Assembly: GCA_000276965.1 (NCBI GenBank)
Contig: AKKQ01000001.1
Location: 11,129-75,128 of the forward strand
Reading direction: 5' to 3'
DNA: 64,000 nt
DNA from: Thiovulum sp. ES
Lineage (GTDB): Bacteria; Campylobacterota; Campylobacteria; Campylobacterales; Thiovulaceae
Shown: positions 40,181 through 63,083 of the stretch, piece after piece
How the letters are laid out: every line of letters starts with the position of its first letter
Position numbering within the stretch: the first letter of the stretch is position 1
The notes under the pieces: generated by a model
The model's database searches: none
What the model was told of the DNA's origin: nothing
What the model saw: only the letters and a program-made list of their open reading frames with translations
Made by a program: the position numbers and the translations under genes

Positions 40181-40203
40181 TGGGACTGACCTAATAGCTC
40201 CTA
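40181..40203. repeat. 23-nt repeat TGGGACTGACCTAATAGCTCCTA (left copy of a perfect inverted pair)
   Basis: Its exact reverse complement occurs at 63061-63083. Weaker similarity continues ~17 nt inward (gtaaaagtttttgt versus gttaaaaagttctttttgt). Confidence 0.85.
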
Positions 40204-40410
40204 GTAAAAGTTTTTGTTATAGAAAAAATGTGATAATCTGAAATCTAACCATCTTTTGTATAGCTTATATTTCTTTATTGTATTCATGGGTAGAATTATA
40301 ACAAGTTAGTCAGTACCAATAACTCTTTCGTATTCAGTATTTCAAATAAGACTCTACAACTTCACTATTGTTTTCACTTTTAAGTTAAGATTCGGACAAA
40401 AAGGATTCTT

Positions 40411-41172
40411 GTGATTAAGATTGGTTTATTTGGTGGTTCAGGTAGAGTTGGACAAAGATTAATTCACCTTATTAGTGAAGCAGAAGATTTAAAATGTAGT
40501 GCGGTTTTTGTGCAAAATATGGGTGATATTTCAATTGATGGAATTTTAGAAACAACAGATGTTTCTGAATTTTTAGGTGCTGTTGATTTAGTTATCGATT
40601 TTTCATTACCAGAAGCAACAGAAATTTTGCTTGAGGGTTTAATTAAAAATCCAAAGCCGACAGTTTGCGGAACAACAGGATTAAATCAGCATCAGCAAAA
40701 TTTAATGGTGGAAGCTTCTCAAACTTCACAGATTCTCTATGCGACAAACATGTCTCTTGGTGTTGCAATTTTAAATAAAGTTGTGCGGGAAGTTTCAAAT
40801 TCTCTCCGTGATTTTGATGCGGAAATTGTTGAAATGCACCACCGATTTAAAAAAGATGCACCATCAGGAACAGCTTTAACTCTTGCGGAAAATGTGGCGA
40901 AAGGTCGTGATTTAGACTTGAATTCGGTTCGAGTTAGTGGTCGAGATGGAAATATTGGAGAAAGAACAAAAGATGAAATCTCCGTTATGGCACTTCGAGG
41001 CGGGGATATTGTTGGTCGGCACACAGTCGGTTTTTATAACGACGGTGAGTTTTTAGAATTTAATCACACGGCAACAAGTCGGGATACTTTTGCAAAAGGT
41101 GCAATTCGTGCGGGTCGTTGGCTGTTGAATAAAGAAAACGGTCTTTATAATATTGCGAGTATTTTTGAATAA
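40411..41172 (+). CDS. dapB: 4-hydroxy-tetrahydrodipicolinate reductase
   Basis: EMHHRFKKDAPSGTA signature. GTG start. Confidence 0.9.
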   Translation: MIKIGLFGGSGRVGQRLIHLISEAEDLKCSAVFVQNMGDISIDGILETTDVSEFLGAVDLVIDFSLPEATEILLEGLIKNPKPTVCGTTGLNQHQQNLMVEASQTSQILYATNMSLGVAILNKVVREVSNSLRDFDAEIVEMHHRFKKDAPSGTALTLAENVAKGRDLDLNSVRVSGRDGNIGERTKDEISVMALRGGDIVGRHTVGFYNDGEFLEFNHTATSRDTFAKGAIRAGRWLLNKENGLYNIASIFE

Positions 41173-42242
41173 TGAACAGATTTGGAGAAAGATTTTCCTT
41201 TACAACTTTTGGTGAGTCTCACGGAATTGGAGTAGGGGTTGTTGTTGATGGAGTTCCTGCTGGTTTAGAACTGAATGAAGAGATTATTCAAAAAGATTTA
41301 GATCGTCGGAAACCAGGTGGGCAATATGCTACAAGTCGAAAAGAGAGCGATGAGGTCGAGATTTTAAGCGGTGTTTTTGAAGGAAAAACAACAGGCACAC
41401 CAATTGGAATGCTAATCAGAAACAAAAATCAGAAAAGCAAAGATTACTCAAATGTGAAAGACCTTTTCCGACCGGGACATGCAGATTTTACATATTTTCA
41501 CAAATACGAAAATCGAGACTATCGAGGTGGCGGTAGAAGTTCCGCACGAGAAACAGCAAGTCGAGTTATGGCTGGAGCAGTTGCAGGTGAAATTCTGAAA
41601 CAGTTTGGAATTGAAGTTTGTAGCGGAGTATCTTTTGTTGGCGGAGTTGGTAGCGACGAATATGATTTTGAGTTTGCAAAAAAGAGCGAAATATATTCAC
41701 TTTCACCAGAGTTTGAAGAGGAGCAAAAACAGACCATTTTATCAGTGAGAGAACACCATGACTCACTTGGTGGAACTGCTGTTGTCAAAATCAAAAATTC
41801 ACCAATTGGACTTGGCGAACCAATCTATTACAAACTAGATGCAAAATTTGCCGATGCGATGTTGAGTATTAATGGGACAAAAGGTGTTGAAATTGGTCTT
41901 GGTGCAGAAGCTACAAAAAAACAGGGTAGCGAAAACAATGACGAAATAAATGAGAATGGATTCCAAAGTAATAATTCTGGTGGAATTCTTGGCGGAATTA
42001 GTAACGGAGATGATATTGACATCAAAATTCATTTCAAACCGACACCATCAATTTTTAAAACTCAAGATACAATTGATATTCATGGAGACCCACAAAAAAT
42101 GAATTTAAAGGGACGACACGATCCTGCGATTGTAACTCGGGGTTCAGTTGTTGCAGAGGCGATGGCAAAAATTGTTCTTGTTGATATGCTACTTCTAAAC
42201 ATGGGAAGAAAAATGAGCGACTTTGTCAAATATTATCGATGA
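41172..42242 (+). CDS. aroC: Chorismate synthase
   Basis: FTTFGESHG, RPGHADFTY, GRSSARET. Confidence 0.95.
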   Translation: MNRFGERFSFTTFGESHGIGVGVVVDGVPAGLELNEEIIQKDLDRRKPGGQYATSRKESDEVEILSGVFEGKTTGTPIGMLIRNKNQKSKDYSNVKDLFRPGHADFTYFHKYENRDYRGGGRSSARETASRVMAGAVAGEILKQFGIEVCSGVSFVGGVGSDEYDFEFAKKSEIYSLSPEFEEEQKQTILSVREHHDSLGGTAVVKIKNSPIGLGEPIYYKLDAKFADAMLSINGTKGVEIGLGAEATKKQGSENNDEINENGFQSNNSGGILGGISNGDDIDIKIHFKPTPSIFKTQDTIDIHGDPQKMNLKGRHDPAIVTRGSVVAEAMAKIVLVDMLLLNMGRKMSDFVKYYR

Positions 42243-42823
42243 GGTGCATTGTTTGCGAAAGATTTTCGTGGAGTCTAATTTGTAAAAATTGCCAACAAAC
42301 TCTTTTGCAACCCTCAATTTTTCGGCGAGACCTTGAGGGTCTTCCCGTTATCAGTTTTTATCAATATGAAGATATTTCGGATTTGATCTTGACAAAAAAC
42401 TCATATTTAGGTTTTTATGTTTTTCAAATTCTTGCAAAAAACTCTTTTAGAAAATTCTCGCAAAATTTTCAATATCCGCAAAAAATTCACTCAATTGGAA
42501 TTGATGAACGAACTAAAAATCGCGGATATTCTCAAACTGCAATTCTCTCAAAATCGCTAAAAAGCGACCTCATCGTTCCAAAATATAACACTTTAGTTTC
42601 AAATTCAGATGTCAAATATTTGGGAAAGAGTTCTGCTTTTCGTCGAAAAAACAAGAGGGATTTTCAATTCAAAAGAGAGAAGTTGAGATATAAAAAAGTG
42701 ATTCTTGTTGATGATGTAATCACAACGGGAACAACCCTCCGTGAAGCAAAAAAAGTGATTTCCAAAAAAGGATTTCAGCCTATTCTGGCTCTAACTCTGG
42801 CGACAACAGAAAAACCGAAATAA
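42239..42823 (+). CDS. comF: ComF-family phosphoribosyltransferase-fold competence protein
   Basis: N-terminal CxxC...CxxC (CIVCERF, CKNCQ) and PRTase motif VILVDDVITTGTT. Confidence 0.75.
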   Translation: MRCIVCERFSWSLICKNCQQTLLQPSIFRRDLEGLPVISFYQYEDISDLILTKNSYLGFYVFQILAKNSFRKFSQNFQYPQKIHSIGIDERTKNRGYSQTAILSKSLKSDLIVPKYNTLVSNSDVKYLGKSSAFRRKNKRDFQFKREKLRYKKVILVDDVITTGTTLREAKKVISKKGFQPILALTLATTEKPK

Positions 42824-42854
42824 CTTTTCATGCTAGTATTCTCCGAAAAGATTT

Positions 42855-44183
42855 TTGATGAAATATTGGCAACTACTTGAAATATCAGAATATATAAAAG
42901 AGTTTTCTGAGATTCGTACAATTTTCCGAATCGATTATCAAACTTTACAAATTGAGTTTGACAAAGGTGAAAAAATTCGTTTTAATATGAGGCGGGGTGA
43001 AAGTTTCATCTACAAAAGTAGCGATGAGGTTCGGAGTGAAAAGATATTTTCTCCGTTTGATACTCAACTCTCTTCTCGATTCCAAAAATCAAAAATTGAT
43101 AAAATTGAAATTTTAAACGGCGATAAAATCCTAAAAATTTCGGTCTCAATTTCCAATAAATATAAAAAATTAGAGTCAAGCTTACAACTAGAATTTACAG
43201 GAAAACATACAAATATAATTTTATTAGATTCTGAAAATAGAGTTTTGGAAGCACTTCACCATATTAGTGAATTTAAATCTGTTCGACCCGTCAAAGTTGG
43301 TGAATTTTTAGGAATTCCACCAAAACCAAATTTTGAGTTTAAAACTGGTGAGAAATTAGAAAATGTCGAAGATTTTTTAAAGAGCGAATGGCGAAATTAC
43401 ATCTCTAAAAAGTTAGAAAAAAGCAAGAAACGAGAAATCTTAAAAGTAGAGAAAAAAATTGACAAATTGAAAAAAAGCTTTGAAGTTGTTAGAAATTCTG
43501 AAATATTTTTTGAAAAAGCAGACAGATTTTCTGAAAATGCTCAAATTCTTCTTGCAAATCTCTATTCACTTCCAAAATATGGAGATTTTGAAACTTATGA
43601 TTTTTCTGGAAATTTGCGAAAAATTGAGAGACCAAAAGAGGCTCGAGATAACAATCACATGATTCAAATTTTCTTTGATAAATCAAAAAAGTTTCGTAAA
43701 AAAGGTGAAAATTCAGAAATTGAACGAACGAACCTCATCGAAAAGATTGACTTTTTAGAGCGAATGACTAAAAATATTAGAAATAGTTCTTCACTTTCTG
43801 AATTAGATATTCTCTCAAATCGTGGAAAAGATAGACGAGAAAAGCGACAAAAAAATGAGCTGTATGAAGTTTTTTGGATTGAGGGTTATAAAATTTTGCT
43901 TGGAAAAAGCGAACGGGGAAATGAGGCACTTTTGAAAGATGCAAAGAGTCGAGATATTTGGTTGCACATGAAAGATATTCCATCGGCACACACTTTAATT
44001 GTTACAGATAAACAGAGTATTCCTGAAAATGTAATTTTTGAAGCGGGAAAACTTTGTCTGAAATTTTCTGTAAAAGAGAGCGGAAAATATCTAATTGATT
44101 ACACAAAACGGCGAAATGTTCGGATTCAAAGTGGTGCAAATGTTCTCTACACAGATTACAAAACTATTGAAGTTGAAATTTAA
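42855..44183 (+). CDS. NFACT/FbpA-family protein with DUF814 (RqcH-like, annotated fibronectin-binding in relatives)
   Basis: The C-terminal RDIWLHMKDIPSAHTLI is DUF814-like. Preceded by a coiled-coil middle region. Confidence 0.7.
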   Translation: MMKYWQLLEISEYIKEFSEIRTIFRIDYQTLQIEFDKGEKIRFNMRRGESFIYKSSDEVRSEKIFSPFDTQLSSRFQKSKIDKIEILNGDKILKISVSISNKYKKLESSLQLEFTGKHTNIILLDSENRVLEALHHISEFKSVRPVKVGEFLGIPPKPNFEFKTGEKLENVEDFLKSEWRNYISKKLEKSKKREILKVEKKIDKLKKSFEVVRNSEIFFEKADRFSENAQILLANLYSLPKYGDFETYDFSGNLRKIERPKEARDNNHMIQIFFDKSKKFRKKGENSEIERTNLIEKIDFLERMTKNIRNSSSLSELDILSNRGKDRREKRQKNELYEVFWIEGYKILLGKSERGNEALLKDAKSRDIWLHMKDIPSAHTLIVTDKQSIPENVIFEAGKLCLKFSVKESGKYLIDYTKRRNVRIQSGANVLYTDYKTIEVEI

Positions 44184-44217
44184 AAATACCGATTAATTTA
44201 AATTATAGGAGAATTAG

Positions 44218-44955
44218 ATGAATTTTTATGGTGTTATTATTGGTTCGGAAATTTTGAATGCTCGTCGTGAAGATAGCCACTTCTCATTTTTGAGAGACCA
44301 ATTAAAAGAGAGAGGTTTTAAACTAGCAGGAGTTTTTACAATTGAAGACAATCCAAATTTGATGAAAGGTATCTACGAATTTATAAAAAGTGTGCCAAAT
44401 TCTGTCATGTTCTCTTTTGGAGGAATTGGTGCTACTCCAGATGATTACACAAGAAAAGTTTCTGCGGAAGTTTTCCGAAATGGCGAAATGGAGTTTCAAA
44501 AAGAGTTTGAGAAAAAAATTCGAGATCGATTTGGAAACGAGTTGATTGAACGAAGAATCCAGATGAGTTACTTGCCAAAAGATAGCGGAGTTTTAAAAAA
44601 TAATCCCGTTAATGGAATGTACGGTTACTATTTAGATGATAGGTTTTTCTTTGTTCCAGGATTTCCTGAAATGGCTCATCCAATGATTACAGAGGCATTT
44701 GACAAGTTTTATCCAAATTCCCAAAAGAAGATTTTCAAAAAGAACCTCATCGCACAGACATCAGAGGCAAATTTAATTGGATGGATGGAGAGTTTGAGTC
44801 CAGAAATTACACTATCTTGTTTGCCGAAACTTGATAAAGATGAGAGTGGTAAAATTTTTCCAAGTGCTGAAATTGAGATCACTTCTGAAAATAGCGAGAT
44901 TTTAGAAATTGAATTTAAAAAATTGCAAAAAGTTTTAAATGAGTTGGGACTTTGA
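44218..44955 (+). CDS. CinA-like molybdopterin-binding (MoCF) domain protein
   Basis: GVIIGSEILNARREDSH...FSFGGIGATPDDYT. Confidence 0.65.
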   Translation: MNFYGVIIGSEILNARREDSHFSFLRDQLKERGFKLAGVFTIEDNPNLMKGIYEFIKSVPNSVMFSFGGIGATPDDYTRKVSAEVFRNGEMEFQKEFEKKIRDRFGNELIERRIQMSYLPKDSGVLKNNPVNGMYGYYLDDRFFFVPGFPEMAHPMITEAFDKFYPNSQKKIFKKNLIAQTSEANLIGWMESLSPEITLSCLPKLDKDESGKIFPSAEIEITSENSEILEIEFKKLQKVLNELGL

Positions 44956-45500
44956 CGAAAGAGCAATTCAGACAAAAAGGGAGAGAGAGAATTTCAAATC
45001 GGGAACGGAGAGTTCTCTCTCGAAAAATTGAAAAAGAGCTAAATAGAGTAATTTATAGAAATCAGAATCGGAATATTCTATTCTATTCACCTCTGAAAAA
45101 TGAAGTTGATATTTCCAACTCTCTCAAATTTTGGAACAAGCGACGAAATGTTTTTTTACCAAAAATTGGGGGTGAGACTTTTTCAGCAATTCCGTTTCGG
45201 GTTCCACTTAAAAAATCAAAATTTGGGACTTTTGAACCAAGTGGAAAAAGCAAAATGCGAAATTTAGATATTGCGATTGTTCCAATTCTTGGAATTGATT
45301 CCACTTTTCGGAGAGTCGGTTTTGGAAAAGGAATGTATGATCGATTTTTTCCAAAATTAAGAAAAATACCTTTTACTATTTTTGTTCAGAATCGATTGAA
45401 TTTTTCAAAAAAAGTTTTGACTGAGAAACATGATATTTTTTGTGATGTTGTTCTCTTTGGAAAAAGTGAGACAAACGACCGATTTTATTTAAAAAGGTAG
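44952..45500 (+). CDS. 5-formyltetrahydrofolate cyclo-ligase
   Basis: FGTFEP...LDIAIVPILGIDSTFRRVGFGKGMYDRFF. TTG start. Confidence 0.8.
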   Translation: MTKEQFRQKGRERISNRERRVLSRKIEKELNRVIYRNQNRNILFYSPLKNEVDISNSLKFWNKRRNVFLPKIGGETFSAIPFRVPLKKSKFGTFEPSGKSKMRNLDIAIVPILGIDSTFRRVGFGKGMYDRFFPKLRKIPFTIFVQNRLNFSKKVLTEKHDIFCDVVLFGKSETNDRFYLKR

Positions 45501-45504
45501 AAAA

Positions 45505-45834
45505 ATGGCAAATGTTTCACCTCTTGGAAATCAGATTTTTATAAATCAGAATATGCATATTGCGAGTAATAAAGTTGCAAACCATCTCTCTCGGCTCACT
45601 GCTCAAGATGTTATGAATTCTGAAAGTTACGAAGAGAATTGCAAACGACTTACAGATACTCGAGACCCTGAAAAAGTTAATGAGATTGATGAAAATCTAA
45701 TTGAAGATGCTGTTTATAGTGTTAAGAAAAAGTATAAGCGACAAGAGGGTGAAAAAGGGGAGGACGATGAGGTCGAAAAAGAGAAAAAACACCTCATCGA
45801 TGAGAAACGAAAGAAGATCGATATTACAATTTAA
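45505..45834 (+). CDS. Hypothetical charged small protein
   Basis: 109-aa ORF following MTHFS by 4 nt. Lys/Glu-rich C-terminus. No family recognised. Confidence 0.5.
   Translation: MANVSPLGNQIFINQNMHIASNKVANHLSRLTAQDVMNSESYEENCKRLTDTRDPEKVNEIDENLIEDAVYSVKKKYKRQEGEKGEDDEVEKEKKHLIDEKRKKIDITI
45765..45799. terminator. Hairpin built from two inverted copies of the over-represented motif (CGATGAGGT-N17-ACCTCATCG)
   Basis: 9-bp perfect stem. On the minus strand it lies 25 nt after the MCP stop and is followed by a T5 run (cccctttttc). It sits inside the last 70 nt of the 109-aa ORF. Confidence 0.4.
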
Positions 45835-47794
45835 ATTGCGAAAGTTCCTCTTTTAATTTTGTTGAGCTTTCAAACATTAATGCGGAGGCATCTTCAATTT
45901 CTCTACTAATATTCCTGTTTTCTCTTGACTGTTTTGTGATTTTTCCAAATTGAGTCAAAAGAGTTTTGCTAATTTCAAAAACATCATCAATTCTTTTTAC
46001 TCCCAAATCAACATTTCTAATCGCTTTTGCCAATTCATCTTGTAGGTGAGTTGAATCTGAAATTAGATCTGTTGAATTTTTAGAGACTTCCATCATCTCT
46101 TCAGATGTACTTTTTATTGATCCTGAAATTTCATCTATGACTTTTGTAATTTTATCAACACTGTTATCTACATTTTTAAGACTAACAAATGTATCATCAG
46201 ATAAATCTTGAACCTGTTCCGCAACAACTTGAAAACCTTTACCGTAACTTCCTGCTCGACTCGCCTCAATTGCTGCATTAATTGCAAGAAGATTTGTCTG
46301 ATCTGAAATTTGCGAAATTTTCTCAGTAGCATTTCTAACCGAAACAGTCATTTTTATTAGACCTTCTATATCTGTTGTGATGTAACTCTGCTTGTCATTG
46401 TTTGTAACAATCATTTTTACCTCTTTTCTTAGATTCATAATAAAATCTTCGAGTGTTGATACTGTTAAGTGGAGTGCTTTGCTGTTATCTTCAATCAAGA
46501 GTCTTGTGTAAGATAAATTTTGTTCAATATCACTCATATATTTATCAACAATTCTAACTCCCTCTTCCTGTTTTTCAACATTCTCCTTGAGAATATTTCC
46601 AATTTTTTGAAGATGTTCAACTTCTTTAATTGATGTTTCAGAACCACTAATCGCATCTCGAATAATCTCTTTGAAAGAGGATAGGAGAATATTTACAGAT
46701 TGTGAAATTTCATTAAGTTCTATAATTTTACTGCTCTCTATATCTTCATGAAAATTTCTCTCTTCTGCGATAAATTTGATCTCATCTTTCATTTTATAAA
46801 CAGTACCTAGAATATTTTGAATCATAAAAAACATTGCAAAGAAAAACAGAATTAGAAAAACTACAAAAATTGAAATATAAGTGTAAAGTTCGTTGTAAGA
46901 ATTCTCTTTTAACTCATTTAGTTTTTTTATAGAGATTTCTGAGAGTTCATCATCAATTAATTTCAAAATATTGATTTTTTTTGTAATTGTTCCAAACCAG
47001 ATAACAGAATCAGTTGAAAAATCTCCAGCCAATGCTTTTATTCTCATTTTTAAAACTTGTCGAACTGGTTCAGCTTTCATTTCAGTTGTATACATTCTCT
47101 TAATTTTATCATTGACTGAGGAGAGAAAAGCATCCATATAGCTATCTTGTTCAGCAATTAGGCGAACCTCTTTTTGAAACATTCCTTCACCAAAACCACC
47201 TCGTGCAAATGTATTTGATAAAACAGCCCTTTCAACACCAGCTCGTTCTTTACTTTTTAAGAAATTTGCATATGCTGTTTGGAGAATTGCTAAATCTTCA
47301 TTTGGGCTAATCTTTCCATTTAGCGGAACAATATTTAAAAGTTTTGCATTTAGTGATGTATAGTAATGCAACTCTTCTCTGACTGTGATTTTTAAGTTTG
47401 TAACTTTTGTTCTTATATTTTCAAGCTCTTCAAGTTGTTTGTAAATTAAATTAATACTCTCTTTTAACTCTTCTGGATAGTCTGAAAAATTGAAATTAGA
47501 GACAAATTCTTCAAGAGCCAATCTTTTCTCATTTGTTAAGAGTCTTTGACTTGGCAGTTTAGATACAAACTTTGTCCCTTTTGAACCTAAATATCCTGCA
47601 CTCATTCCTCGCTCTTTTTGAGTTTCATGAACAAATCTTGAGATATGTGAAGAGAGAATTACAAGCTCTTTGGTTTTATCTAGTTTTTCGTTTTCTTTTA
47701 AGAGTCCACCAATTTCTAAGAAGATAAGTATTGTACTAAATAATAATGCAAATAAGAAAACAGCGAAAAGTCTGCCTTTTAATGAATTTATCAT
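45824..47794 (-). CDS. Methyl-accepting chemotaxis protein with periplasmic NIT (nitrate/nitrite-sensing type) domain
   Basis: NIT-like ETQKERGMSAGYLGSKG and the signalling hairpin NLLAINAAIEASRAGSYGKGFQVVAEQV. Confidence 0.85.
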   Translation of the reverse strand: MINSLKGRLFAVFLFALLFSTILIFLEIGGLLKENEKLDKTKELVILSSHISRFVHETQKERGMSAGYLGSKGTKFVSKLPSQRLLTNEKRLALEEFVSNFNFSDYPEELKESINLIYKQLEELENIRTKVTNLKITVREELHYYTSLNAKLLNIVPLNGKISPNEDLAILQTAYANFLKSKERAGVERAVLSNTFARGGFGEGMFQKEVRLIAEQDSYMDAFLSSVNDKIKRMYTTEMKAEPVRQVLKMRIKALAGDFSTDSVIWFGTITKKINILKLIDDELSEISIKKLNELKENSYNELYTYISIFVVFLILFFFAMFFMIQNILGTVYKMKDEIKFIAEERNFHEDIESSKIIELNEISQSVNILLSSFKEIIRDAISGSETSIKEVEHLQKIGNILKENVEKQEEGVRIVDKYMSDIEQNLSYTRLLIEDNSKALHLTVSTLEDFIMNLRKEVKMIVTNNDKQSYITTDIEGLIKMTVSVRNATEKISQISDQTNLLAINAAIEASRAGSYGKGFQVVAEQVQDLSDDTFVSLKNVDNSVDKITKVIDEISGSIKSTSEEMMEVSKNSTDLISDSTHLQDELAKAIRNVDLGVKRIDDVFEISKTLLTQFGKITKQSRENRNISREIEDASALMFESSTKLKEELSQFKL

Positions 47795-47946
47795 CTAAAT
47801 CCTTTTAAATAAAGTTAGAGATTGATTATAAGATAATTAAAAGTTTTAAAGCTTAAAAAATCAATTTTTTAAGTTAGGAATTTTTTCTAAGAGTTATGAA
47901 AGCAAAAAAACATATAATTTTGCGAAATATTAAAAAAAGGAACAGA

Positions 47947-48333
47947 ATGCCTAAGATTAATAGATATGTTGATATTGATCAAGTTGAGCGAGAAGCTCGA
48001 AAAGATTACATTGATAGACACTCTCCGTTTGTTACTGTTTCTGGTGAAGCAAAAAAAGGTGAAAAGTTAGCTGTTACTGTAAAAGTTGGAAATGAGTATT
48101 CTCATCCAGATGATTTTGATCACTTTATTTCAAATGTTTCTCTTTTTAATGGTGAGACTCTTCTTGCTAGAGCTGACTTTGTTCCTGGAACTCTTGGAAA
48201 TGAAAAAAGTCAAGTTGAAGTTACTTTCAACATCATTCCAACAACAAAGAAATTAAAACTTGTAGCTCAAAGCTACTGTACAAAACATGGTGTTTGGGAA
48301 TCTGATCCAGTAGCTTGTGAAGTTGCTGAATAG
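47947..48333 (+). CDS. Superoxide reductase / desulfoferrodoxin-family (neelaredoxin-like) protein
   Basis: DRHSPFVTV, HPDDFDHFI, CTKHGVWES iron-site pattern. ATG 47947 follows AAGGA; the upstream ATG 47896 is less likely. Confidence 0.7.
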   Translation: MPKINRYVDIDQVEREARKDYIDRHSPFVTVSGEAKKGEKLAVTVKVGNEYSHPDDFDHFISNVSLFNGETLLARADFVPGTLGNEKSQVEVTFNIIPTTKKLKLVAQSYCTKHGVWESDPVACEVAE

Positions 48334-48362
48334 TTGAAAAACTTAAAACATCTCCCCAAAAA

Positions 48363-48382
48363 TGTCGGAATTTTTTCCGACA
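48363..48382. terminator. Bidirectional hairpin TGTCGGAA-tttt-TTCCGACA (family member e)
   Basis: Perfect 8-bp stem between the convergent SOR-like gene and the PBP gene. Confidence 0.65.
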
Positions 48383-54059: not shown

Positions 54060-54818
54060 TTAAAAATTGCAAATAGAATCGGTCAAATATCCAGAAAATT
54101 GGTGGATTTGAAAACATATTTTTTCACCGTTTTTAGAAAGTTCAATTTCAACAATATCTTTTAAAATATGTTTGTATGGATGAGGTTCTTCAGATTTTGC
54201 AAATGCACTCAAAGTAATTCCATTGCTTGTTGGAAAAAGATACGGTCGACCAAATTCATCAAAAAATAGGTTTAATTTGTTTTCAAAAATTTTTGGATTT
54301 GTCCCATATTTAAAGCGGACTTTCTCAATTCCATATTCAAGAGATAAATTCATAGAAGTTTCTGTTAAATTTTCAATTTTATATTTTGCACCAGTCGAAC
54401 TATTTTTAAAAAGTTCTGTCCAAAGTCCATTCAAGTATTTTTGGCTATGCGGATCAATCGCGACTTCATCGGCTTTTATATCGAAATTAAATCTAGTTCT
54501 TGTGGGAGTGTCGGAATAAATTGAGTAATAGAGAAGTTTTTTGTTGTAAATCGTGCTAGTTTCACTTGTTGAAGCTAGTTGAATTTGCCAATAACTTTTA
54601 AACGGAAATTTTTGTCGCAACTCACTTTCAGTTTGTAAAGCAACTTTTTCATCAACCATCGCCAAATGTTGTGTGTAGCGAATGTGTCGCATAAATTGAG
54701 TTTTTGCAACTTCTATTCCTTTTTTATCATCTATTTTAAGAAAAAAAGTCGCAAAAATTGAGACTATCAGAATTACAAAAACTAATTCAAGAAGCGAAAA
54801 AGATTTTCTACAATTCAC
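54060..54818 (-). CDS. Large pseudopilin / type IV pilin-like protein
   Basis: The prepilin-type N-terminus KSFSLLELVFVILIVSIF resembles the Campylobacter Cts pseudopilin leader AFTLLELVFVI. Confidence 0.6.
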   Translation of the reverse strand: MNCRKSFSLLELVFVILIVSIFATFFLKIDDKKGIEVAKTQFMRHIRYTQHLAMVDEKVALQTESELRQKFPFKSYWQIQLASTSETSTIYNKKLLYYSIYSDTPTRTRFNFDIKADEVAIDPHSQKYLNGLWTELFKNSSTGAKYKIENLTETSMNLSLEYGIEKVRFKYGTNPKIFENKLNLFFDEFGRPYLFPTSNGITLSAFAKSEEPHPYKHILKDIVEIELSKNGEKICFQIHQFSGYLTDSICNF

Positions 54819-55074: not shown

Positions 55075-55176
55075 TTCAAATTCCCTTTTTTAAAATTCTA
55101 ACAGAGAAAACCATAATTTAAAAAGATGATTATCGTTTGTCGATTCTCTTAATCTACCATAGTTTAAGGAAAAATT

Positions 55177-58100
55177 TTGAAAAAATTGTTTGTTTATCTC
55201 TTTTTGACACTCTCACTTTTTAGTAATGAGCTTGTTGAAATCTATCTTCCAGATGGCGAATGGAAACTTATTGGTGTTCCAGGTCCATTTTATGAGGGTT
55301 CTAGTTCTGCTGATACTTTTAGTAGCACCGATTGGTATGAAGCAAAAGATTTAAATGCAGGTGATACTTATATTGCTCTTACTGATACCGCAGGAACTGT
55401 CTCTATTTGTGATGAAGATTCTGATGTTCTCTGTTTCTCTTTGGAGGATTCAAATTATGAAGTGATTTTTGCCTCTGAGGTTGATAATGATAATATTGAT
55501 ACCTATATTCCTCGCCGAGAAATGTTTGTTTCGTTCGATGGTGGAGTAGATATGAATATTTCCTATCAAGCAGATTTAGAGGGGAATCCATTTGAGATAA
55601 AACTTTTTTCGTCCGCATCAAGCTATGAATTTTATGAGGGAGTTTTAAACTCTTCTTACGGATACTCAAATCCTGCATATTTAACAGTTAAAACAGGAAC
55701 AAGTTCGACTTACACAATGGATTTGAGAAACGACAGTATTATTGATTGGAATTTATCAAACAATCCAGGGAAAAGAGGTCAAGAGGGCGAACTTTCAGAT
55801 TACGAAGAGGCGAATGATCGAGATGCAATTGACTTGAGTCGAGACGAATATTTACAACTCTATTGGCTAAATTCAGTTGGTGGATATTGGGAAATTTTCA
55901 ATTCTGGATATTCTGATACTTACAACGATTTTACAGAAATTGAGAGCGGAAAAGGGTATTGGGCAAGAACAAATAATGCGATAAATGGTGAAACGGGATT
56001 AATTCTTGGCGACGGAAATATTAGTAGCTCAACTTACAATAGCAGATTGGCAGAAGGTTGGAATTTGCTCTCATTTCCAAATGGCAAAATTAGAGAGTCT
56101 GCAACTGGCTTAATAGTTTCAACAACAACAAATATCGCAACAAATAAGACATTTACAATCACTGATGAATTTGGAACAGAAAGTATTGAAATCGAAATGC
56201 TTCAGATTGACTCAACAAATGAAATAGTTGTTGCAATAAATTCCCAAATTGCAGGTGCTATTGAAGATGGAAATCTTTCAGAAGATTTTAATATTCGTGC
56301 TTTTGCATTAAATGATTCAACCAACTCAAATGCTAAATTTATGCTTCTTTCAGATAAAAGATTTAGGCTTTATGACTCAACTGATAATGTTATTGATGAG
56401 GTCAATACGACTGGAGAACAAAATCCATACAGTTTATATGATTATTCATATGACGGAATTTCTGATTTAGATGCAAACGGAACAATGTCAAGATATGGTG
56501 AATATATGCTACTTGTTGTTCCACCAAACGACGGTGATGGTTTTCTGGAAGGAGTTGATGGAAAAGTTCAAGTAAATACAAATACAGCGATTGACATGAA
56601 TGGATTAACGGAAATACCAGAGTTTGCAACTGCTATGGAAGCAGATGACGATATTGACCGAGCAATTCCTGTTGATTTGGATTTAGATGGAGATGTGGAT
56701 TCCGTATTACTTGTGAATAAAGATGAACCGTTTTATATTCGAGATGCTACTTTTACAAAAATTTATCGAGTAGATGACACAGGACACAATGGAGCAACAA
56801 TCTATTTTAATAATGGAATGGATGACGATAATTTTTCAAGTTTCTCTGTTGCAAATGGAGATAGTGCAGGAACAATTGCAACAACTTTTGCAGGTGAAAG
56901 TTTCGGCAGTATGATTGAAGACTCTAGTGGAGATTATATCTATCTTACAACAACAAACCCATCTTTAAAAAATTTCGATCTTTATGATTATGAATCTGAT
57001 GATATTTTTACAAGAATAATTTCCATGAGTGATAACGAAGTTATAGGTGCAATCAAAGCTGTCTATTCAGTTTCAGAACTTGCAAAAGCTGATGTGAATA
57101 AAAGTGTTTATATCTCAAATATTACAACAAATAGTCCTAGCGGAAAATATGTTTCGGTTAAGATTGATGGAGAAGAGACTACTTTTACATCGGTTGGAAC
57201 AGGTGCAGGAAATATATGTATTGAATTAGCTTCACAAATTAATGAATTGGATGTTCCAGTATATGCCGAATGTGATTCGACAAATACAGCTGATGATGAT
57301 TCAAACCTAACCATAACAGGATATTTTACACAAGCAGGTATCAAATCAGATGGTGCCGCAGGTAATAAAATTGAATTAGATGGAGGTGGTGATACAACTT
57401 ATGACTATTCACCAGATTTTGGAAGTGCGGGAATTGGCGGAAGCACTCAAAATACAAGCAACTATTTAACAAGTGATTTGCGATACCGAGCAATTTACAC
57501 ACCAGATTTTCCAACAGAGGAAACAAGCCTCTCATATATTCGAGAACATAACTACTCTGTGGCAAAAATGCTAACTGCGGTAAATAATGTAGATGGTTCA
57601 ACAATTTCTTGGAAATTTATAGATTTAACAGCGGATGAAGATTATTGGTTTAGTAAAAATAATGGTTTTGATTTATTTGATATTGAGCAAGAGCGAGGAT
57701 ATTTTGCATTTTTAGATGAAAAAAATAGTTCGGAAATTGGAATCACATCCTCTCTCGATTTGGAATTTTCGCAACGATTTAATAATGACAATAATAATTC
57801 TGGATTTGCTAAAGCGGGTGAAGTCCTAAATTTGCCAAGTGGAACTTTAAAAGTTGAACTTTCTGGAGATGAAGGAAATCAAACTCGAGTTATTGCAACA
57901 ATTCAGGGAACTGATTACAGAATGACACAAGGAACTTCATCCTATTCTCTTTCAATAGATTTAGAAAATATGCCAAATCTTTATCAGTGGGACTCAAATA
58001 TTACAATTTCCGCTTACGACCTTGATGGCGATACAGGAACAGAGCAAGTCGAACTAAATTTATCAGCACCAGCGACACCAGTTTTTGGATTTTTTGAACA

Positions 58101-59043
58101 TGGAAAAATTATATTTCTCGGAACGACCTCATCGGACTTAGAAGGCTTTCACATGTATAGCGGAGATATTGATGAACGGTATCCAACACCATCAAATATT
58201 GATGGAACAACTTATGTAAAAGATATAACTGTTTATACGGACTACAAAACAAGCGGTAGTGAATATTGTTATGATGAAGATGGTAGCGGTGCTGGTTGTG
58301 CTTCCGGCTACACTTATGGAATGGATTTATATGTTCGCAGTAACATTTATGGAAAAGAGAGTGAAGTTGGTGATTATGGTGTTACGGGAAATGCAAAAGT
58401 TTATGACTATGAATCTGACTCTGTTGGATATGTTGAAAATACGACCGATGATTTGGCAACTCTCTATTTCTTAACTTACAATATTTGCGAAGATGCCCCA
58501 GATTTTGATACAAATAATACAGGTTGGAAATTTGTCGCATACGATGGAAGTGGAACAGTTTCAAATATTCAGTTTCTCCCAGACTGGTATGCAATTTATA
58601 AAAATGCCTCAATTCTTGCTACAAATGATGATATTGAAACAGATCAAGCACCTCGACTTTATGATTCAGATTGCGAACCTGCTTCTTCTAATAGTGTAAA
58701 AGATAATGGTGTTGTTTTGATAGATACAGATTTGACTGATGAGACAAATATCTCAATTGCATATGAAGATATAACTTCTGCTTCAATTACACAAGCACAT
58801 GCAAACCGATTAGGAAATGTTTATATTCAATACAAAGGTTTTGATGTTGCAAGAATACAGTATTCCGCATCTCATTATCTTTCGACATACAACGGTGGAG
58901 AAGAAAAAACAATTCTTTTTGATTTAAACAACACAATGATTTTTGCAACAACTTTTGATGATTTGAATAGTTCAAATATTTTTGATTTAGACGACTCCGC
59001 AATTCAACTAGAAAGCAACCAAAGTATTATGAAGGCATATTAG
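55177..59043 (+). CDS. 1288-aa secreted Asp/Asn/Ser/Thr/Gly/Tyr-rich surface protein, unknown family
   Basis: Signal peptide MKKLFVYLFLTLSLFS (TTG start). FG-GAP/EF-hand-like Ca motif DLDLDGDVDSVLLV and a second DLDGDTG. Almost no Lys/Arg-rich or hydrophobic segments. Confidence 0.75.
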   Translation: MKKLFVYLFLTLSLFSNELVEIYLPDGEWKLIGVPGPFYEGSSSADTFSSTDWYEAKDLNAGDTYIALTDTAGTVSICDEDSDVLCFSLEDSNYEVIFASEVDNDNIDTYIPRREMFVSFDGGVDMNISYQADLEGNPFEIKLFSSASSYEFYEGVLNSSYGYSNPAYLTVKTGTSSTYTMDLRNDSIIDWNLSNNPGKRGQEGELSDYEEANDRDAIDLSRDEYLQLYWLNSVGGYWEIFNSGYSDTYNDFTEIESGKGYWARTNNAINGETGLILGDGNISSSTYNSRLAEGWNLLSFPNGKIRESATGLIVSTTTNIATNKTFTITDEFGTESIEIEMLQIDSTNEIVVAINSQIAGAIEDGNLSEDFNIRAFALNDSTNSNAKFMLLSDKRFRLYDSTDNVIDEVNTTGEQNPYSLYDYSYDGISDLDANGTMSRYGEYMLLVVPPNDGDGFLEGVDGKVQVNTNTAIDMNGLTEIPEFATAMEADDDIDRAIPVDLDLDGDVDSVLLVNKDEPFYIRDATFTKIYRVDDTGHNGATIYFNNGMDDDNFSSFSVANGDSAGTIATTFAGESFGSMIEDSSGDYIYLTTTNPSLKNFDLYDYESDDIFTRIISMSDNEVIGAIKAVYSVSELAKADVNKSVYISNITTNSPSGKYVSVKIDGEETTFTSVGTGAGNICIELASQINELDVPVYAECDSTNTADDDSNLTITGYFTQAGIKSDGAAGNKIELDGGGDTTYDYSPDFGSAGIGGSTQNTSNYLTSDLRYRAIYTPDFPTEETSLSYIREHNYSVAKMLTAVNNVDGSTISWKFIDLTADEDYWFSKNNGFDLFDIEQERGYFAFLDEKNSSEIGITSSLDLEFSQRFNNDNNNSGFAKAGEVLNLPSGTLKVELSGDEGNQTRVIATIQGTDYRMTQGTSSYSLSIDLENMPNLYQWDSNITISAYDLDGDTGTEQVELNLSAPATPVFGFFEHGKIIFLGTTSSDLEGFHMYSGDIDERYPTPSNIDGTTYVKDITVYTDYKTSGSEYCYDEDGSGAGCASGYTYGMDLYVRSNIYGKESEVGDYGVTGNAKVYDYESDSVGYVENTTDDLATLYFLTYNICEDAPDFDTNNTGWKFVAYDGSGTVSNIQFLPDWYAIYKNASILATNDDIETDQAPRLYDSDCEPASSNSVKDNGVVLIDTDLTDETNISIAYEDITSASITQAHANRLGNVYIQYKGFDVARIQYSASHYLSTYNGGEEKTILFDLNNTMIFATTFDDLNSSNIFDLDDSAIQLESNQSIMKAY

Positions 59044-59639
59044 TGGTTTTTTACGATTCCAACTACAATTTTTTAAAAGTAGAGGAATCGCTTTTTAAAA
59101 CTTTAAAATTTGATTCTGTAAATACGATGAGGTCGGAAATTGGAAATGACTTCTCAAATCTATTCTACAAATCAAAATTTCATATTCATAAATTTGAGAA
59201 TATCTGTTGGCTTGAATTTCTTCTTCAAAATAGTGGAAAAGCGATTTTGCAATTTGGAGACGGAAATCTTTACAAAACAGATTTAAATGCGAAAAAATTA
59301 GAAAAGAATTTTGTAGTTCAAATTGGAGAAACTTTAGAATTTATTGAAATATCAAAAATTGATAAAAATGAGTTTGAGAAGTTTTTCCAAATTTTTAAAA
59401 ATAGTGAAAATGAAATTCTTGAAAATTTAAATAAAAATGATTTCAGAAAAGTCCAGCAAAAAATTTTTGCATTAAAAAGATATTTTGTATTTTTTGATGT
59501 TCTTGAACTTAAAAATTATATCTATAAAATTGTTGATGAATTGGAAAAAGAGTCTCCAAATTTTAGAGAAATCACTTTTTGGTGGCTCGATTTTTCAGAA
59601 ATAGCTGAAGACACAAATCAATCTTTTAAATCTCTCTAA
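59043..59639 (+). CDS. Hypothetical 198-aa cytoplasmic protein, translationally coupled to the giant gene
   Basis: The GTG start overlaps the TAG stop of the upstream gene (taGTG). No family recognised. Confidence 0.5.
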   Translation: MVFYDSNYNFLKVEESLFKTLKFDSVNTMRSEIGNDFSNLFYKSKFHIHKFENICWLEFLLQNSGKAILQFGDGNLYKTDLNAKKLEKNFVVQIGETLEFIEISKIDKNEFEKFFQIFKNSENEILENLNKNDFRKVQQKIFALKRYFVFFDVLELKNYIYKIVDELEKESPNFREITFWWLDFSEIAEDTNQSFKSL

Positions 59640-59680
59640 GTAAAATTTAAGTAGAATGTGGGACTACAAATTTCTTCTGG

Positions 59681-61474
59681 GTGTTTTATTTGGATATATT
59701 AGAAAATCTTTTACGAGTTAGAGTTTTAGAAAATTCGCTTTTAGCAAAAAAATACGGTTTCAACGAAAAAGAGGTCGCCGTTTTCAAGTATTTAATAAAA
59801 AATTATATAATTGAAAATAGTGAGGGAGTTCAGATTGAGACAATTTTAAAAGAAGTTTTTCAAGTTACATCTTTAAGTAAAAAACTTGAAGAGATAGAAG
59901 TTTTACGAAATCTTTACATTCAAGACTACATTGATATTGGAAGTAGTGGACTTTTCAGTTTTGAACCCAATTTTAAAACTGAAAGAGAAAAACAGCCTAT
60001 TCTTGAAATTTTAAATGGAAGTGCTTCACTTTCAAATAGATTTTTATTAATGCTTGAAGACAGAGAAAACGAAGAAACAAAAATTATTGACGAGCCTTAT
60101 TCCGATAATTATGAATATCTTGTTGATAAATTTACAAAGTTGGAACTTTTTTTAAAAAGAGATGGTTTAAAAACTATTAGAGAACGAGCTTTTGAAATTG
60201 ATAAAAAAATAGAGAGCCGAATCGCAAAAACTGAAATCAAATTTGGCTTAGAAAATATTCTTGAAAGATATAAAATCGATTTTGATGAAGAGATAATTAT
60301 TTTGGCAATTCTTTCTGAAGAGTTCAAATATTTTCAAACAGAGCAAAAATTGAAAGAACTCCATAATTTAGCAGAGTTAATTAGCTTAACTCCTCTAGAA
60401 AAATTGAAAAATCAAAGCACAATTTTCAAAAGACTAGTAGAAGATTCTGAAATTTTCAAAATTGAGAAGCAAGTCGAATATGTTTATGAAGAGAAAGAGA
60501 CAGGTGAAAAAGACACTGTCTATTACATTGGTCTTGCTAATGGGATTTTGGAAGAGATTAAAACAGGTAAAAAAGCTGAACCTGAAAATGAAGAAGAGAA
60601 AAAACGAACTCTTTTAAAAGATATAGTTGAAGAAGATGAGCAATTTGAACTTGTTGTTCCTGAAAAAGGTCTCGATGAGGTTACTCTTTCAAAAGATACT
60701 CGAAAAGTTTTGGATACGGTTGTTAAGCAACTTGATGAAAATGTGGTGAAAAGACTTCAAGAATGGGGAGTTCAAAAAGAGGGAAAAGGCATTAGTGCTA
60801 GAATTATTTTCCACGGAGTGCCAGGAACTGGAAAAACCTTAACAGCAACAGCATTAGCAAAAGAGCTTGGAAAAGAGCTACTTCATTTTGACTCATCAAA
60901 AATAGTTTCAATGTATGTTGGTGAAAGTGAAAAAAATGTTCGTGGAATTTTTGACTCATACAAAAATATTGTGGAAAAGACTGGACTTCAACCTGTTCTA
61001 TTTTTAAATGAAGCGGATCAATTTTTAACAGGTCGTTCAACTGATTTAGGTGGAAACAGCTCTATCTCTCAAATGTATAATCAGATGCAGAATATTTTTC
61101 TTGAGCAAATTGAAAATTTTGAGGGTGTTTTAATCGCAACTACAAATATTTTGGAAAATATTGATAAGGCATTTTCACGACGATTTAATTACAAAGTTGA
61201 ATTCAAATTACCAAATGAAGAAGAGCGAATTGAGATTTGGAAACATCACTTGCCTAAAAATGCACCATTTGAGAAAAAATTTCAAGTCGAAGAACTTGCA
61301 AAATATAAATTGAGTGGTGGTCAAATTGATTTGGTTGTTAAAAACACAGCTTTTCATATGGCAACTGAAAAAAAACCACTTTTTACAACTGAGAGTTTTA
61401 AAAAAGAGATTGAACGAGAGATAAAAAGTAGTTTTGACAGTCAGAAAATTATGGGCTTTTTAACAGGTTCATAG
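59681..61474 (+). CDS. Classical-clade AAA+ ATPase with ~350-aa unknown N-terminal region
   Basis: Walker A GVPGTGKT, MYVGESEKNVRGIF, Walker B VLFLNEADQF and the second region of homology AFSRRF. GTG start. Confidence 0.85.
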   Translation: MFYLDILENLLRVRVLENSLLAKKYGFNEKEVAVFKYLIKNYIIENSEGVQIETILKEVFQVTSLSKKLEEIEVLRNLYIQDYIDIGSSGLFSFEPNFKTEREKQPILEILNGSASLSNRFLLMLEDRENEETKIIDEPYSDNYEYLVDKFTKLELFLKRDGLKTIRERAFEIDKKIESRIAKTEIKFGLENILERYKIDFDEEIIILAILSEEFKYFQTEQKLKELHNLAELISLTPLEKLKNQSTIFKRLVEDSEIFKIEKQVEYVYEEKETGEKDTVYYIGLANGILEEIKTGKKAEPENEEEKKRTLLKDIVEEDEQFELVVPEKGLDEVTLSKDTRKVLDTVVKQLDENVVKRLQEWGVQKEGKGISARIIFHGVPGTGKTLTATALAKELGKELLHFDSSKIVSMYVGESEKNVRGIFDSYKNIVEKTGLQPVLFLNEADQFLTGRSTDLGGNSSISQMYNQMQNIFLEQIENFEGVLIATTNILENIDKAFSRRFNYKVEFKLPNEEERIEIWKHHLPKNAPFEKKFQVEELAKYKLSGGQIDLVVKNTAFHMATEKKPLFTTESFKKEIEREIKSSFDSQKIMGFLTGS

Positions 61475-61518
61475 CCTGAAACTTTTTGATAGGATTAAAA
61501 AAATATAGGAGAATCTTT

Positions 61519-62676
61519 TTGATTTTTACATCACCTTTAAAAGAGAATAGTAAAAAAATCATGCTACTTGGAAGTGGCGAACTTGGAAAAGAGGTCGCAA
61601 TCGAGGCTCAAAGATTGGGAATAGAAGTTGTTGCAGTTGATAGATACGAAAATGCTCCAGCCCACCTTGTAGCAAATCGTAGCTATACAATTGACATGAA
61701 AAATCGAGAACAGCTTTTAGAAATTATTCAGAAAGAGAAACCTCATCACATTTTGCCTGAAATCGAGGCTATAAATATTGATGCACTTTTAGAAGTTGAA
61801 AAAATGGGATTTGAAGTTATTCCAAATGCCGAAGCGGTTCATAAAACGATGAATCGAAAAAATATCCGAAAATTTGCAAACGAAGATTTAGAAATTCCGA
61901 CAAGCAAATACTTTTTTGTGAAATCATTTGAAGAGTTAGAAAAGTCTGCGGAAACTCTCGGTTTTCCAGTTGTGATAAAACCAGTTATGAGTTCGTCAGG
62001 ACATGGTCAAAGTATTGCAAAAACAAAAGAGGATTTAGCAGAATCTTGGAGAATTGGAAAAGAGGAAGCTCGGGGCGATAGCAGTGAATTGATTGTCGAA
62101 GAATTTATAAAATTTGATTATGAAATCACTCTTTTGACAGTTCGGAACGGAGTTGAGACCACTTTTTGCGAACCGATTGGGCATATTCAGAAAGATGGAG
62201 ATTATATTTTTTCATGGCAACCGATGGAAATGAGTCAAAAAGCTATCGAGAAAAGCAAGGAAATTGCACAAAAAATTACTGACGGATTGGGTGGTCGTGG
62301 TCTTTTTGGAGTTGAACTTTTTGTTCGTGGCGATGAGGTCTGGTTTTCTGAAGTTAGTCCGCGACCACATGATACGGGAATGGTTACACTAATTACACAA
62401 TCTCAAAGTGAGTTCGCCTTGCATGTCCGAGCTGTTTTAGGTTTGCCAACTGAACATCTCTTTTTTGGTTCTGGAATTAGTGGAGCTTTTAAAACTGAAA
62501 AAGAACACGACTCTGATATTGAAGTTCCAAACGAGGCTTTTTCAAAAAACTCTTTTTTCCGAGTATTTGGAAAACCAGAAGCACACAGCGGTAGGCGAAT
62601 GGGAGTCTATTTGGCACTTGGTGAAATTAAAACAGAGTTGGAAAAAGCAAAAGAGATTTTAAAAAATACAAAATAA
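61519..62676 (+). CDS. purT: Formate-dependent phosphoribosylglycinamide formyltransferase
   Basis: [16 protein letters not shown] and an ATP-grasp body. TTG 61519 lies 7 nt after TAGGAG and matches PurT N-termini better than TTG 61486. Confidence 0.9.
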
Positions 62677-62681
62677 AATAT

Positions 62682-62701
62682 TTGTCGGGTGATTCCGACA
62701 A
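62682..62701. terminator. Hairpin TTGTCGG-gtgatt-CCGACAA (family member g)
   Basis: 7-bp stem between the purT stop and the stop of the minus-strand 89-aa ORF. Confidence 0.6.
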
Positions 62702-62705
62702 TTTG

Positions 62706-62975
62706 CTAAATTGCACAAGTTCCACATTCCAAATGTCGATTTTGCACACTTTCCGTATCTTCATAAATTGTTGCAAAACTATTTCTCTCATAAACGGTAA
62801 TTGTTTGATGATTGACTCTTTTATTTTGTAGCGGTTCATTTGTTGTAGTTGAAAAAATAGAAAGGAAATCTGAAAAGAATGACATTTGTTCTCCAAAAGT
62901 TTTACAAAATTTTAAATTACCTAATTGACTATTTTTGTCTCTAATTAGACCTGTTTTTAAAATTCTATGCACCAT
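62706..62975 (-). CDS. Questionable 89-aa ORF ending ...HLECGTCAI
   Basis: Fills the purT/thyX-like gap and has a hairpin right after its stop. However, the SD is weak and no family is recognised. Confidence 0.3.
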   Translation of the reverse strand: MVHRILKTGLIRDKNSQLGNLKFCKTFGEQMSFFSDFLSIFSTTTNEPLQNKRVNHQTITVYERNSFATIYEDTESVQNRHLECGTCAI

Positions 62976-63060
62976 TTCGCTGAAACTTAAATTTAAAAAG
63001 CAGTAAGATATAAGTAAAAACTCTTATTTTGGGAATCACACAAAAAGAACTTTTTAACAT

Positions 63061-63083
63061 TAGGAGCTATTAGGTCAGTCCCA
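63061..63083. repeat. 23-nt repeat TAGGAGCTATTAGGTCAGTCCCA (right copy, inverted)
   Basis: Exact reverse complement of 40181-40203. Lies next to the thyX-like terminator hairpin TTCCCG/CGGGAA at 63095-63115. Confidence 0.85.

Follow-up and report, generated by a model that had tools for sequence, protein, structure and literature searches.

An exact inverted pair of a 23-nucleotide sequence brackets 22.9 kb of Thiovulum sp. ES DNA

Two copies of a 23-nt sequence, TGGGACTGACCTAATAGCTCCTA, lie in inverted orientation at a spacing of 22.9 kb in the 64-kb stretch of Thiovulum sp. ES DNA analysed here (the window). The pair is genuine and exceeds what chance would produce, but nothing found so far points to any activity or role of these sequences. 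Our tentative suggestion is that both 23-mers belong to a short repeat specific to this lineage, probably the solo end, starting with TG, of a transposon or MITE.

Results

The pair is exact, intergenic and sharply bounded

40181..40203, plus strand: copy A of the 23-mer, 55 nt past the recJ stop (40125) and 207 nt ahead of the dapB GTG (40411)
63061..63083, minus strand: copy B, the exact reverse complement, beginning where the T-run behind the thyX terminator-like hairpin (63095-63117) ends

An earlier note on this DNA had described an exact 23-nt inverted pair, not expected by chance and located in non-coding sequence, and on all three counts the analysis agrees. The 23-mer occurs exactly twice in the window (40181-40203, plus; 63061-63083, minus), and no further copy was found there at up to three mismatches. 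It is the longest exact repeat of the window, the runner-up being a 19-nt low-complexity repeat, and none of 100 shuffles yielded a match. Both copies are situated just past gene 3' ends (copy A follows the recJ stop by 55 nt, copy B the thyX stop by 38 nt), where the 23-mer forms a GC-balanced island within AT-rich spacer. The imperfect similarity that had been said to continue for ~17 nt toward the inside of the bracket is not above chance, as local alignment of the inner flanks gave p ~0.05-0.13 and global alignment z of 1.3-1.6; the repeat therefore ends abruptly at the limits of the 23-mer. The outer flanks of the two copies showed no significant similarity either, except for a nominal p = 0.025 at 60-nt length. 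In both copies the identity starts exactly at 5'-TG, and the outer termini face outward, away from each other.

The 20-mer core had no match in the GTDB representative genomes, a set that excludes Thiovulum sp. ES itself, or in the JGI metagenomes, a collection that also lacks the ES genome and in which the best purT match is 78%, indicating that the close relative R (see below) is apparently not included. In IMG/VR a 17-mer had no match and a 16-mer had seven chance matches, none extending, while plasmid and phage searches returned noise only. A fuzzy search of 1.1 Mb of related loci, allowing up to six mismatches, did not find the 23-mer. No autonomous parent element is known, since the core is absent from the GTDB representatives and JGI metagenomes (20-mer) and from IMG/VR (17-mer). 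The ends of the 23-mer (TGGGACTGA...CTCCTA) resemble what we take to be bacterial 16S rRNA around positions 314-344; the window holds no rRNA for comparison, and the resemblance is thus taken as coincidence.

Copy A lies at a gene-order break

40134..40380, no strand assigned: ES-specific junction DNA with copy A, 247 nt, with no counterpart at the recJ or dapB locus of the closest relative R
40309..40318, minus strand: candidate inverted partner of the copy A terminus, TGGTACTGAC-TAA, 13/14 with one gap, weakly supported

The closest relative, R, has ~90% nucleotide identity to ES. In a blastn map against R, homology to L008 stops at 40133 and homology to L001 begins at 40381, and upstream of dapB only the last 30 nt are conserved between the two genomes. 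Copy A is thereby positioned at a break in gene order. Rearrangement between ES and R is dense, however: 20 kb contain at least four breaks. With one break roughly every 5 kb in this region, the location of copy A on one of them is weak evidence. The comparison covers the left junction only, as the R contig with thyX ends 2 nt past the stop codon; in more distant relatives the gene order around purT, thyX and dapB is not kept.

It could be argued that the pair is a by-product of rearrangement, a breakpoint stretch having been duplicated in inverted orientation as the block inverted or inserted (through staggered breaks or template switching, for example). An exact, sharply bounded pair at the block ends would fit such an event, as would the gene-order break at the left end of the block and the high rearrangement density. 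The 23-mer, however, is absent upstream of dapB in R and from both candidate ancestral junctions there. We know of no established mechanism for inverted breakpoint duplication in bacteria and, to our knowledge, Campylobacterota generally lack NHEJ; both points count against the explanation, which we regard as very unlikely. The unrelated flanks of the two copies are better suited to a conserved element end beside different DNA than to a duplicated segment.

The candidate partner, TGGTACTGAC-TAA, is found 106 nt inward of copy A and would delimit a 138-bp unit (40181-40318). Its 10-mer occurs only four times in the window at up to one mismatch, but its standing is borderline, since 5.8% of random 600-nt windows score equally well (p ~0.06). 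A target-site duplication of 3-5 bp is absent, the flanks being ATC and ATA for the 138-bp unit and AATC and AAAA for the whole bracket.

Junction repeats in the relative and the question of inversion

L001 7543-7630: dispersed repeat copy in the related Thiovulum population
L001 8912-8996: dispersed repeat copy in the same population
L008 5025-5073: dispersed repeat copy in the same population

R has a dispersed repeat of its own, ~50-90 nt long, at three junctions where it differs from ES by rearrangement or indel, and two inverted copies exactly bracket a 1.3-kb segment of R that is inverted relative to ES. Small dispersed repeats other than the 23-mer are thus present at rearrangement junctions in the genus Thiovulum. 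The 23-mer has no similarity to the repeat of R, whose presence at such junctions was counted toward the ES pair being a short repeat.

The arrangement in R, where a segment flanked by a pair of inverted repeats is oriented differently from ES, also bears on the proposal that the 23-mers are sites at which a recombinase encoded elsewhere inverts the 22.9-kb block, or a substrate for rare RecA-dependent inversion. The inverted orientation, exact identity and sharp edges of the pair are those of a recombination core, and in this the inversion sites suggested in the earlier note find some agreement, inverted core copies being present at both ends; the recombinase in the window and the dyad symmetry of known core sites are both missing. 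The same note had stated that the window contains no recombinase or transposase, and Pfam scans of its ORFs (most of those of at least 80 aa) indeed found no such domain; nor was a transposase found in the 1.1 Mb of related loci. Hin/hix, Gin/gix and tyrosine-recombinase switches likewise have exact short inverted repeats flanking a DNA segment, but the 23-mer pair lacks an adjacent recombinase gene and a dyad-symmetric core, and whereas the segment in these switches is a promoter or variable gene, here it is 22.9 kb of housekeeping genes (dapB, aroC, PBP2, tRNA-Met and purT among them). Flipping the block would alter no obvious promoter-gene link, neither of its orientations reproduces the junctions seen in R, and the contig was assembled through both junctions. 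We regard an inversion site in either form as decidedly improbable.

A fork trap of the Tus/Ter type was considered and rejected, there being no dif-like site between the copies and no GC-skew switch. Ter sites are also 23 bp, non-palindromic and found as two opposed copies, but the 22.9 kb between the 23-mers holds ordinary operons, and we know of no Tus or RTP homologue in Campylobacterota.

The recJ|dapB junction, not being common to R, could alternatively reflect an artefact of single-cell assembly after MDA, either a chimeric join or a contaminating oligonucleotide sequence. Thiovulum sp. ES is a single-cell genome according to the title of Marshall et al. 2012, as cited in PMC9938260. 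The assembly used here is a single-cell draft. A chimeric join, however, does not account for a further copy whose flanks to either side are unique and native; the thyX terminator next to copy B is intact, and the flanks of both copies resemble native AT-rich spacer. MDA, which we presume was used for this genome, produces chimeras of which most are inverted joins formed where short stretches are complementary, a point in favour of an artefact. The 23-mer is unlike any adaptor known to us and we found no paper carrying the sequence, both of which speak against contamination. An artefact could at most have misoriented the block and not created the pair, and we consider it extremely unlikely.

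Copy B lies beside an orphan open reading frame

62677..63121, no strand assigned: intergenic region of 445 nt between convergent purT and thyX, containing copy B, an orphan ORF and a terminator-like hairpin
62682-62701, minus strand: terminator-like hairpin in the purT-thyX spacer
62706-62975, or 62706-62885 from an ATG with GGAG before it: orphan ORF within the purT-thyX spacer
63030..63039, plus strand: putative inverted partner of the copy B terminus, TGGGAATCAC, 8/10, very weak
63095-63117: thyX terminator-like hairpin, with copy B directly after it

The orphan ORF is the sole ORF of the 445-nt spacer; it has no Pfam match and, among 1.84 billion representative proteins, no homologue but itself. 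The putative partner of copy B, TGGGAATCAC, is probably a chance match, as there are 21 matches at equal stringency in the window. The same sequence is similar to the stem of the thyX terminator.

A further proposal is that one putative DNA-binding protein recognizes the 23-mer as a shared cis-regulatory site ahead of both the dapB-aroC operon and a second transcription unit, formed by the small orphan ORF and its terminator. Each copy is oriented in the same way toward the unit that follows it, at the similar distances of 207 nt and 175 nt from the start codon, the 23-mer is GC-balanced in AT-rich spacer, and two further motifs noticed post hoc are shared: TGTGAT 20-25 nt beyond the inner end of both copies, and TAGAATT at +110 and +116 from the copy starts. 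Against these features, an operator would not usually show 23/23 identity with no degenerate relatives in 64 kb, the motif is missing upstream of dapB in R, and the second 'target' is an orphan ORF. Read from the sequence, the 23-mer has neither dyad symmetry (5/11 arm positions) nor a -10 element inside it. A sigma-54 promoter (GG-N10-GC; TGGCAC-N5-TTGC) was not found, for although TGGGAC is present, the GC is displaced downstream by 2-3 nt. We consider a shared operator unlikely.

The small RNA that had been proposed as one option for the pair found no backing: copy A matched no Rfam model at E up to 10, copy B gave noise only, and there was no significant fold. Fold z-scores against shuffles ranged from -0.8 to +0.5, the exception (-2.1) coming from a stretch dominated by the thyX terminator. 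That no RNA family, fold or promoter logic accounts for the pair was counted toward an element end. A more general proposal, that the 23-mer is a functional site, either the core of an unlinked recombinase that flips the 22.9-kb block in a possibly polyploid giant bacterium or one half of an RNA pair, strikes us as quite unlikely. In the latter form, a plus-strand transcript of the purT-thyX spacer may carry 23 nt perfectly complementary to RNA from the recJ-dapB spacer.

Discussion

Among the options raised in the earlier note, the remnant of a small element appears to fit best, on weak cues in the sequence (the TG start, the outward ends and the borderline partner of copy A). The 23-mers would be terminal repeats of an insertion element, either small and non-autonomous (MITE-like) or a decayed one of the DDE type, surviving as solo or near-solo ends in the fast-turnover intergenic DNA of Thiovulum sp. 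ES. Such an end would once have been recognized by a transposase whose gene lies in another part of the genome or has since been lost, and the pair would have no dedicated function today; at most it might offer a minimal substrate (23 bp, approximately the RecA minimum) for rare inversion of the 22.9-kb block. Counted in favour of an element end were the presence of copy A in the 247 nt missing from R and the position of copy B adjoining the orphan ORF; against it stands the fact that only two copies are visible in the 64-kb window.

The terminal inverted repeats of IS3-family elements are 20-40 bp long, begin with 5'-TG and end with CA-3'. The 23-mer resembles the ends of this family, and of its IS150 group, in its length of ~23 bp, 5'-TG start, outward termini and intergenic location after gene ends, but differs in having no target-site duplication, no convincing second end nearby and no transposase in the window or the related loci. 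Compared with the actual ends of IS150 in E. coli K-12, the resemblance is terminal only: TGGGACTGACC agrees with the right end, TGTACTGACCCC, at 9 of the 11 terminal bases, and similarity ceases after those 11 nt. The resemblance was counted toward an element end, and its shortness against it. REP/REPIN sequences and the dispersed repeat of R are, in common with the 23-mer, short, lineage-specific and intergenic, and the repeat of R is found at junctions, where inverted pairs can bracket inverted segments. The repeat of R, however, has an AGTTC...GAACT hairpin core, whereas the 23-mer has no internal palindrome, and a hairpin of the REP/REPIN type was not found in it (by direct inspection the arms agree at 5/11 positions, with no significant fold).

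Thiovulum is uncultured and known mainly from draft genomes and metagenome assemblies, and the draft order recJ | dapB...purT | thyX should not be treated as fixed pending confirmation from reads. If the 23-mers are only a repeat or element relic, the finding is minor, adding one more datum for heavily rearranged Thiovulum genomes with lineage-specific repeats at their junctions. Should the pair instead act in inversion or in regulation, the finding would carry more weight, as a long, sequence-exact site without a linked enzyme.

An exact and sharply bounded inverted repeat

The 23-mer TGGGACTGACCTAATAGCTCCTA lies on the plus strand at 40181-40203 (copy A) and its exact reverse complement at 63061-63083 (copy B), a direct sequence match that confirms the inverted repeat described in the earlier note. 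In an exhaustive scan of the 64 kb in either orientation it was the longest exact repeat, followed by a 19-nt CT-rich repeat and then AT-rich 17-mers, and its G+C content is 48% compared with about 33% for the window. The 23-mer occurred in none of 100 dinucleotide-preserving shuffles of the window, and we estimate from the base composition that one 64-kb window should contain about 7e-4 exact 23-nt pairs, the expectation for pairs with the composition of this 23-mer being, also by our estimate, far below that value. The pair is thus genuine and not a product of chance, as the earlier note stated. Allowing up to 3 mismatches, the window holds no third copy.

Imperfect similarity was also said to continue for about 17 nt toward the inside of the bracket, a claim that did not survive alignment. 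Local alignment of the inner flanks of copies A and B gave p values of about 0.05-0.13, varying with length, global alignment over 60-200 nt on the inner side gave best z scores of 1.3-1.6, and the outer flanks were non-significant except for a nominal p = 0.025 at 60 nt. Likeness of the two loci outside the 23 nt is not demonstrable and, since the flank alignments are near chance, the repeat is a sharply bounded 23-mer, with C (copy A) or T (copy B) as the preceding base and G or A, respectively, as the following base.

Beyond the window, a 20-nt core had no match in GTDB representative genomes or in the JGI metagenome collection. In the former set, a probe with the N-terminal part of ThyX, whose coding sequence lies just beyond the window edge, likewise detected no locus of 100% identity. 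A 17-nt core had no match in IMG/VR, where a 16-mer gave 7 chance matches, none extending. The related genomes in which copies were to be sought yielded none in 1.1 Mb of related loci at up to 6 mismatches. We found no occurrence of the 23-mer in published papers, and it is therefore not a published oligonucleotide.

Genomic setting of the two copies

Both copies are non-coding, following recJ and thyX as previously described. The RecJ and ThyX proteins of the window match those of Thiovulum sp. ES, on an 81,617-bp NCBI contig, with 100% identity.

Features at the two copies
40181-40203, plus strand: copy A, 55 nt past the recJ stop and 207 nt ahead of the dapB GTG
62682-62701, minus strand: good terminator-like hairpin after the orphan ORF
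62706-62975, minus strand: orphan ORF 3' of copy B, 89 codons (59 if translation starts at the GGAG-preceded ATG at 62885)
63061-63083, minus strand: copy B, beginning where the T-run after the thyX hairpin ends (minus-strand reading)
63095-63117: hairpin just past thyX, followed by a T-run

The orphan ORF belongs to no Pfam family and, among 1.84 billion representative proteins, matched only itself; purT converges on the copy B locus from the opposite side. The 22.9-kb block between the copies is ordinary chromosome.

Genes of the block
dapB, aroC, phosphoribosyltransferase, NFACT protein, MoCF-biosynthesis gene, 5-FTHF cyclo-ligase
NIT-domain chemoreceptor, desulfoferrodoxin, PBP2, HTH regulator with CMD-family protein, tRNA-Met
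M14 carboxypeptidase, pilin-like protein, 1288-aa protein of unknown function, AAA ATPase, purT

What had been called a surface-protein locus comprises the 1288-aa protein (55177-59043, plus strand), which has no Pfam domain, and an adjoining 252-aa protein (54060-54818, minus strand) with a prepilin N-methylation motif. Elsewhere in the window, at 2032-2849 on the minus strand, a PIN-domain protein is encoded directly 3' of a MerR-type HTH protein, adjoining a DnaJ-like (DnaJ-domain) gene; the pair is toxin-antitoxin-like.

Domain scans covering most window ORFs of at least 80 aa detected no recombinase or transposase, in agreement with the earlier note. The inverted orientation of the copies would suit an inversion site, but one served by an unlinked recombinase, which we consider quite improbable.

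RNA, protein-binding and transposon-end readings

At gathering thresholds Rfam identified only two tRNAs in the window, and at E values up to 10 copy A had no match and copy B eukaryotic noise only. Folding of both loci, as RNA or DNA, was no better than that of shuffled sequence, apart from one stretch in which the thyX terminator predominates. The small RNA module proposed earlier is thus unsupported, and a structured RNA was rejected.

It could be argued that the 23-mer is a shared putative protein-binding site upstream of two transcription units. By direct reading it holds a good sigma-54 -24 element (TGGGAC); its GC is 2-3 nt too distant from TGGGAC, and a sigma-54 promoter was rejected. 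The 23-mer contains no -10 hexamer, and its halves agree as a dyad at only 5 of 11 positions. We regard such a binding site as unlikely. A Ter-like fork trap is unsupported because a dif-like site and a GC-skew switch are both absent between the copies.

The identity of A and B begins exactly at 5'-TG in both copies, and their termini face outward, as in a DDE transposon. Comparison with the IS150 ends, read from E. coli K-12, showed that the terminus TGGGACTGACC is similar to the right end of that element, TGTACTGACCCC; 9 of 11 bases agree, and no further. At up to one mismatch the 10-mer TGGGACTGAC has four sites in the window, namely copies A and B, one coding site and one inverted site, the candidate partner of copy A:

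40309-40318: inverted 10-mer, 106 nt inside copy A, which would bound a 138-bp unit

Equally good alignments to the reversed 23-mer were obtained in 5.8% of random 600-nt windows, and the candidate partner for copy B matches at only 8 of 10 positions. Target-site duplications are absent from the flanks of all candidate units, and no IS3-type transposase is encoded in the window or any retrieved locus. Because the IS150 match is short, the partners are weak, and target-site duplication and transposase are lacking, we do not claim IS3-family membership for the 23-mer.

Comparison with the closest relative

The closest relative, R, is a related Thiovulum population (JGI samples 33000794xx-795xx) with identities to ES of 94% (DapB) and 89% (RecJ) at the amino-acid level and about 90% in nucleotides. 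In a blastn map, R homology covers 25733-30754 and 34078-40133, ending 8 nt past the recJ stop, and a separate R contig covers 40381-44183, from 30 nt ahead of dapB through the NFACT gene. Thus, the 247 nt at 40134-40380, which include copy A, have no counterpart at the recJ or dapB locus of R. Downstream of recJ, R carries a 109-aa gene, an LRV-repeat gene, a DJ-1/PfpI gene and then the nuo operon; upstream of its dapB is a divergent carB. Of the synteny comparisons envisaged earlier, that of the recJ-dapB junction could be made, and the junction is not shared with R. The sole close thyX contig stops 2 nt past the thyX stop, short of the right-hand junction, and more distant relatives do not keep the gene order around purT, thyX or dapB.

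Copy A is therefore located at a gene-order break, as might be expected if the pair were a duplication made by a past rearrangement. It should be emphasized that this position is weak evidence, because four or five ES/R breaks occur in the comparable 20 kb. We give such a duplication only a slight probability. The breaks counted include an ES-only 3.3-kb island and an inverted 1.3-kb MoCF/5-FTHF segment.

The island (30755-34077), which is probably a restriction-modification unit, encodes a KilA-N protein, a C5 cytosine DNA methylase and a 240-aa protein without a family; the corresponding site in R holds only a methylase remnant of 89 aa. The MoCF-biosynthesis and 5-FTHF cyclo-ligase genes (44178-45469) are inverted relative to R, in which the segment (L001 7625-8918) is exactly bracketed by inverted repeat arms at L001 7543-7630 and 8912-8996, 77% identical over 87 nt. 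The cyclo-ligase has 182 aa in ES and 198 aa in R, where a repeat arm encodes its C-terminus. A third copy of the R repeat (L008 5025-5073, 90% over 49 nt) occupies the junction that in ES holds the 3.3-kb island. This dispersed repeat is about 50-90 nt long with a small hairpin core, AGTTC..GAACT, and leaves no trace in ES. After the dapB-MoCF block, R also carries phage-like genes (pRha and two AntA) and a KAP NTPase (L001 9123-14269), none of which occurs in the ES window.

Discussion

The ES genome was published as a single-cell genome (Marshall et al. 2012, as cited in PMC9938260). An assembly or MDA artefact is very unlikely to explain the repeat, as it could have put the block in the wrong orientation but would be unable to generate the pair. 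The most likely of the readings considered, which we advance tentatively, is that the 23-mers are both copies of one short repeat specific to the lineage, probably a terminus, solo or nearly so, of a mobile element that was small or has decayed. Both copies would persist in rapidly turning-over spacer DNA, the pair would have no dedicated function, and its capacity to support inversion would be marginal at most. A precedent exists in R, whose repeat copies lie at junctions and are absent from ES; thus, small dispersed repeats particular to one lineage are found in Thiovulum genomes at the same places as rearrangement junctions, and inverted pairs of such repeats can bracket inverted segments.
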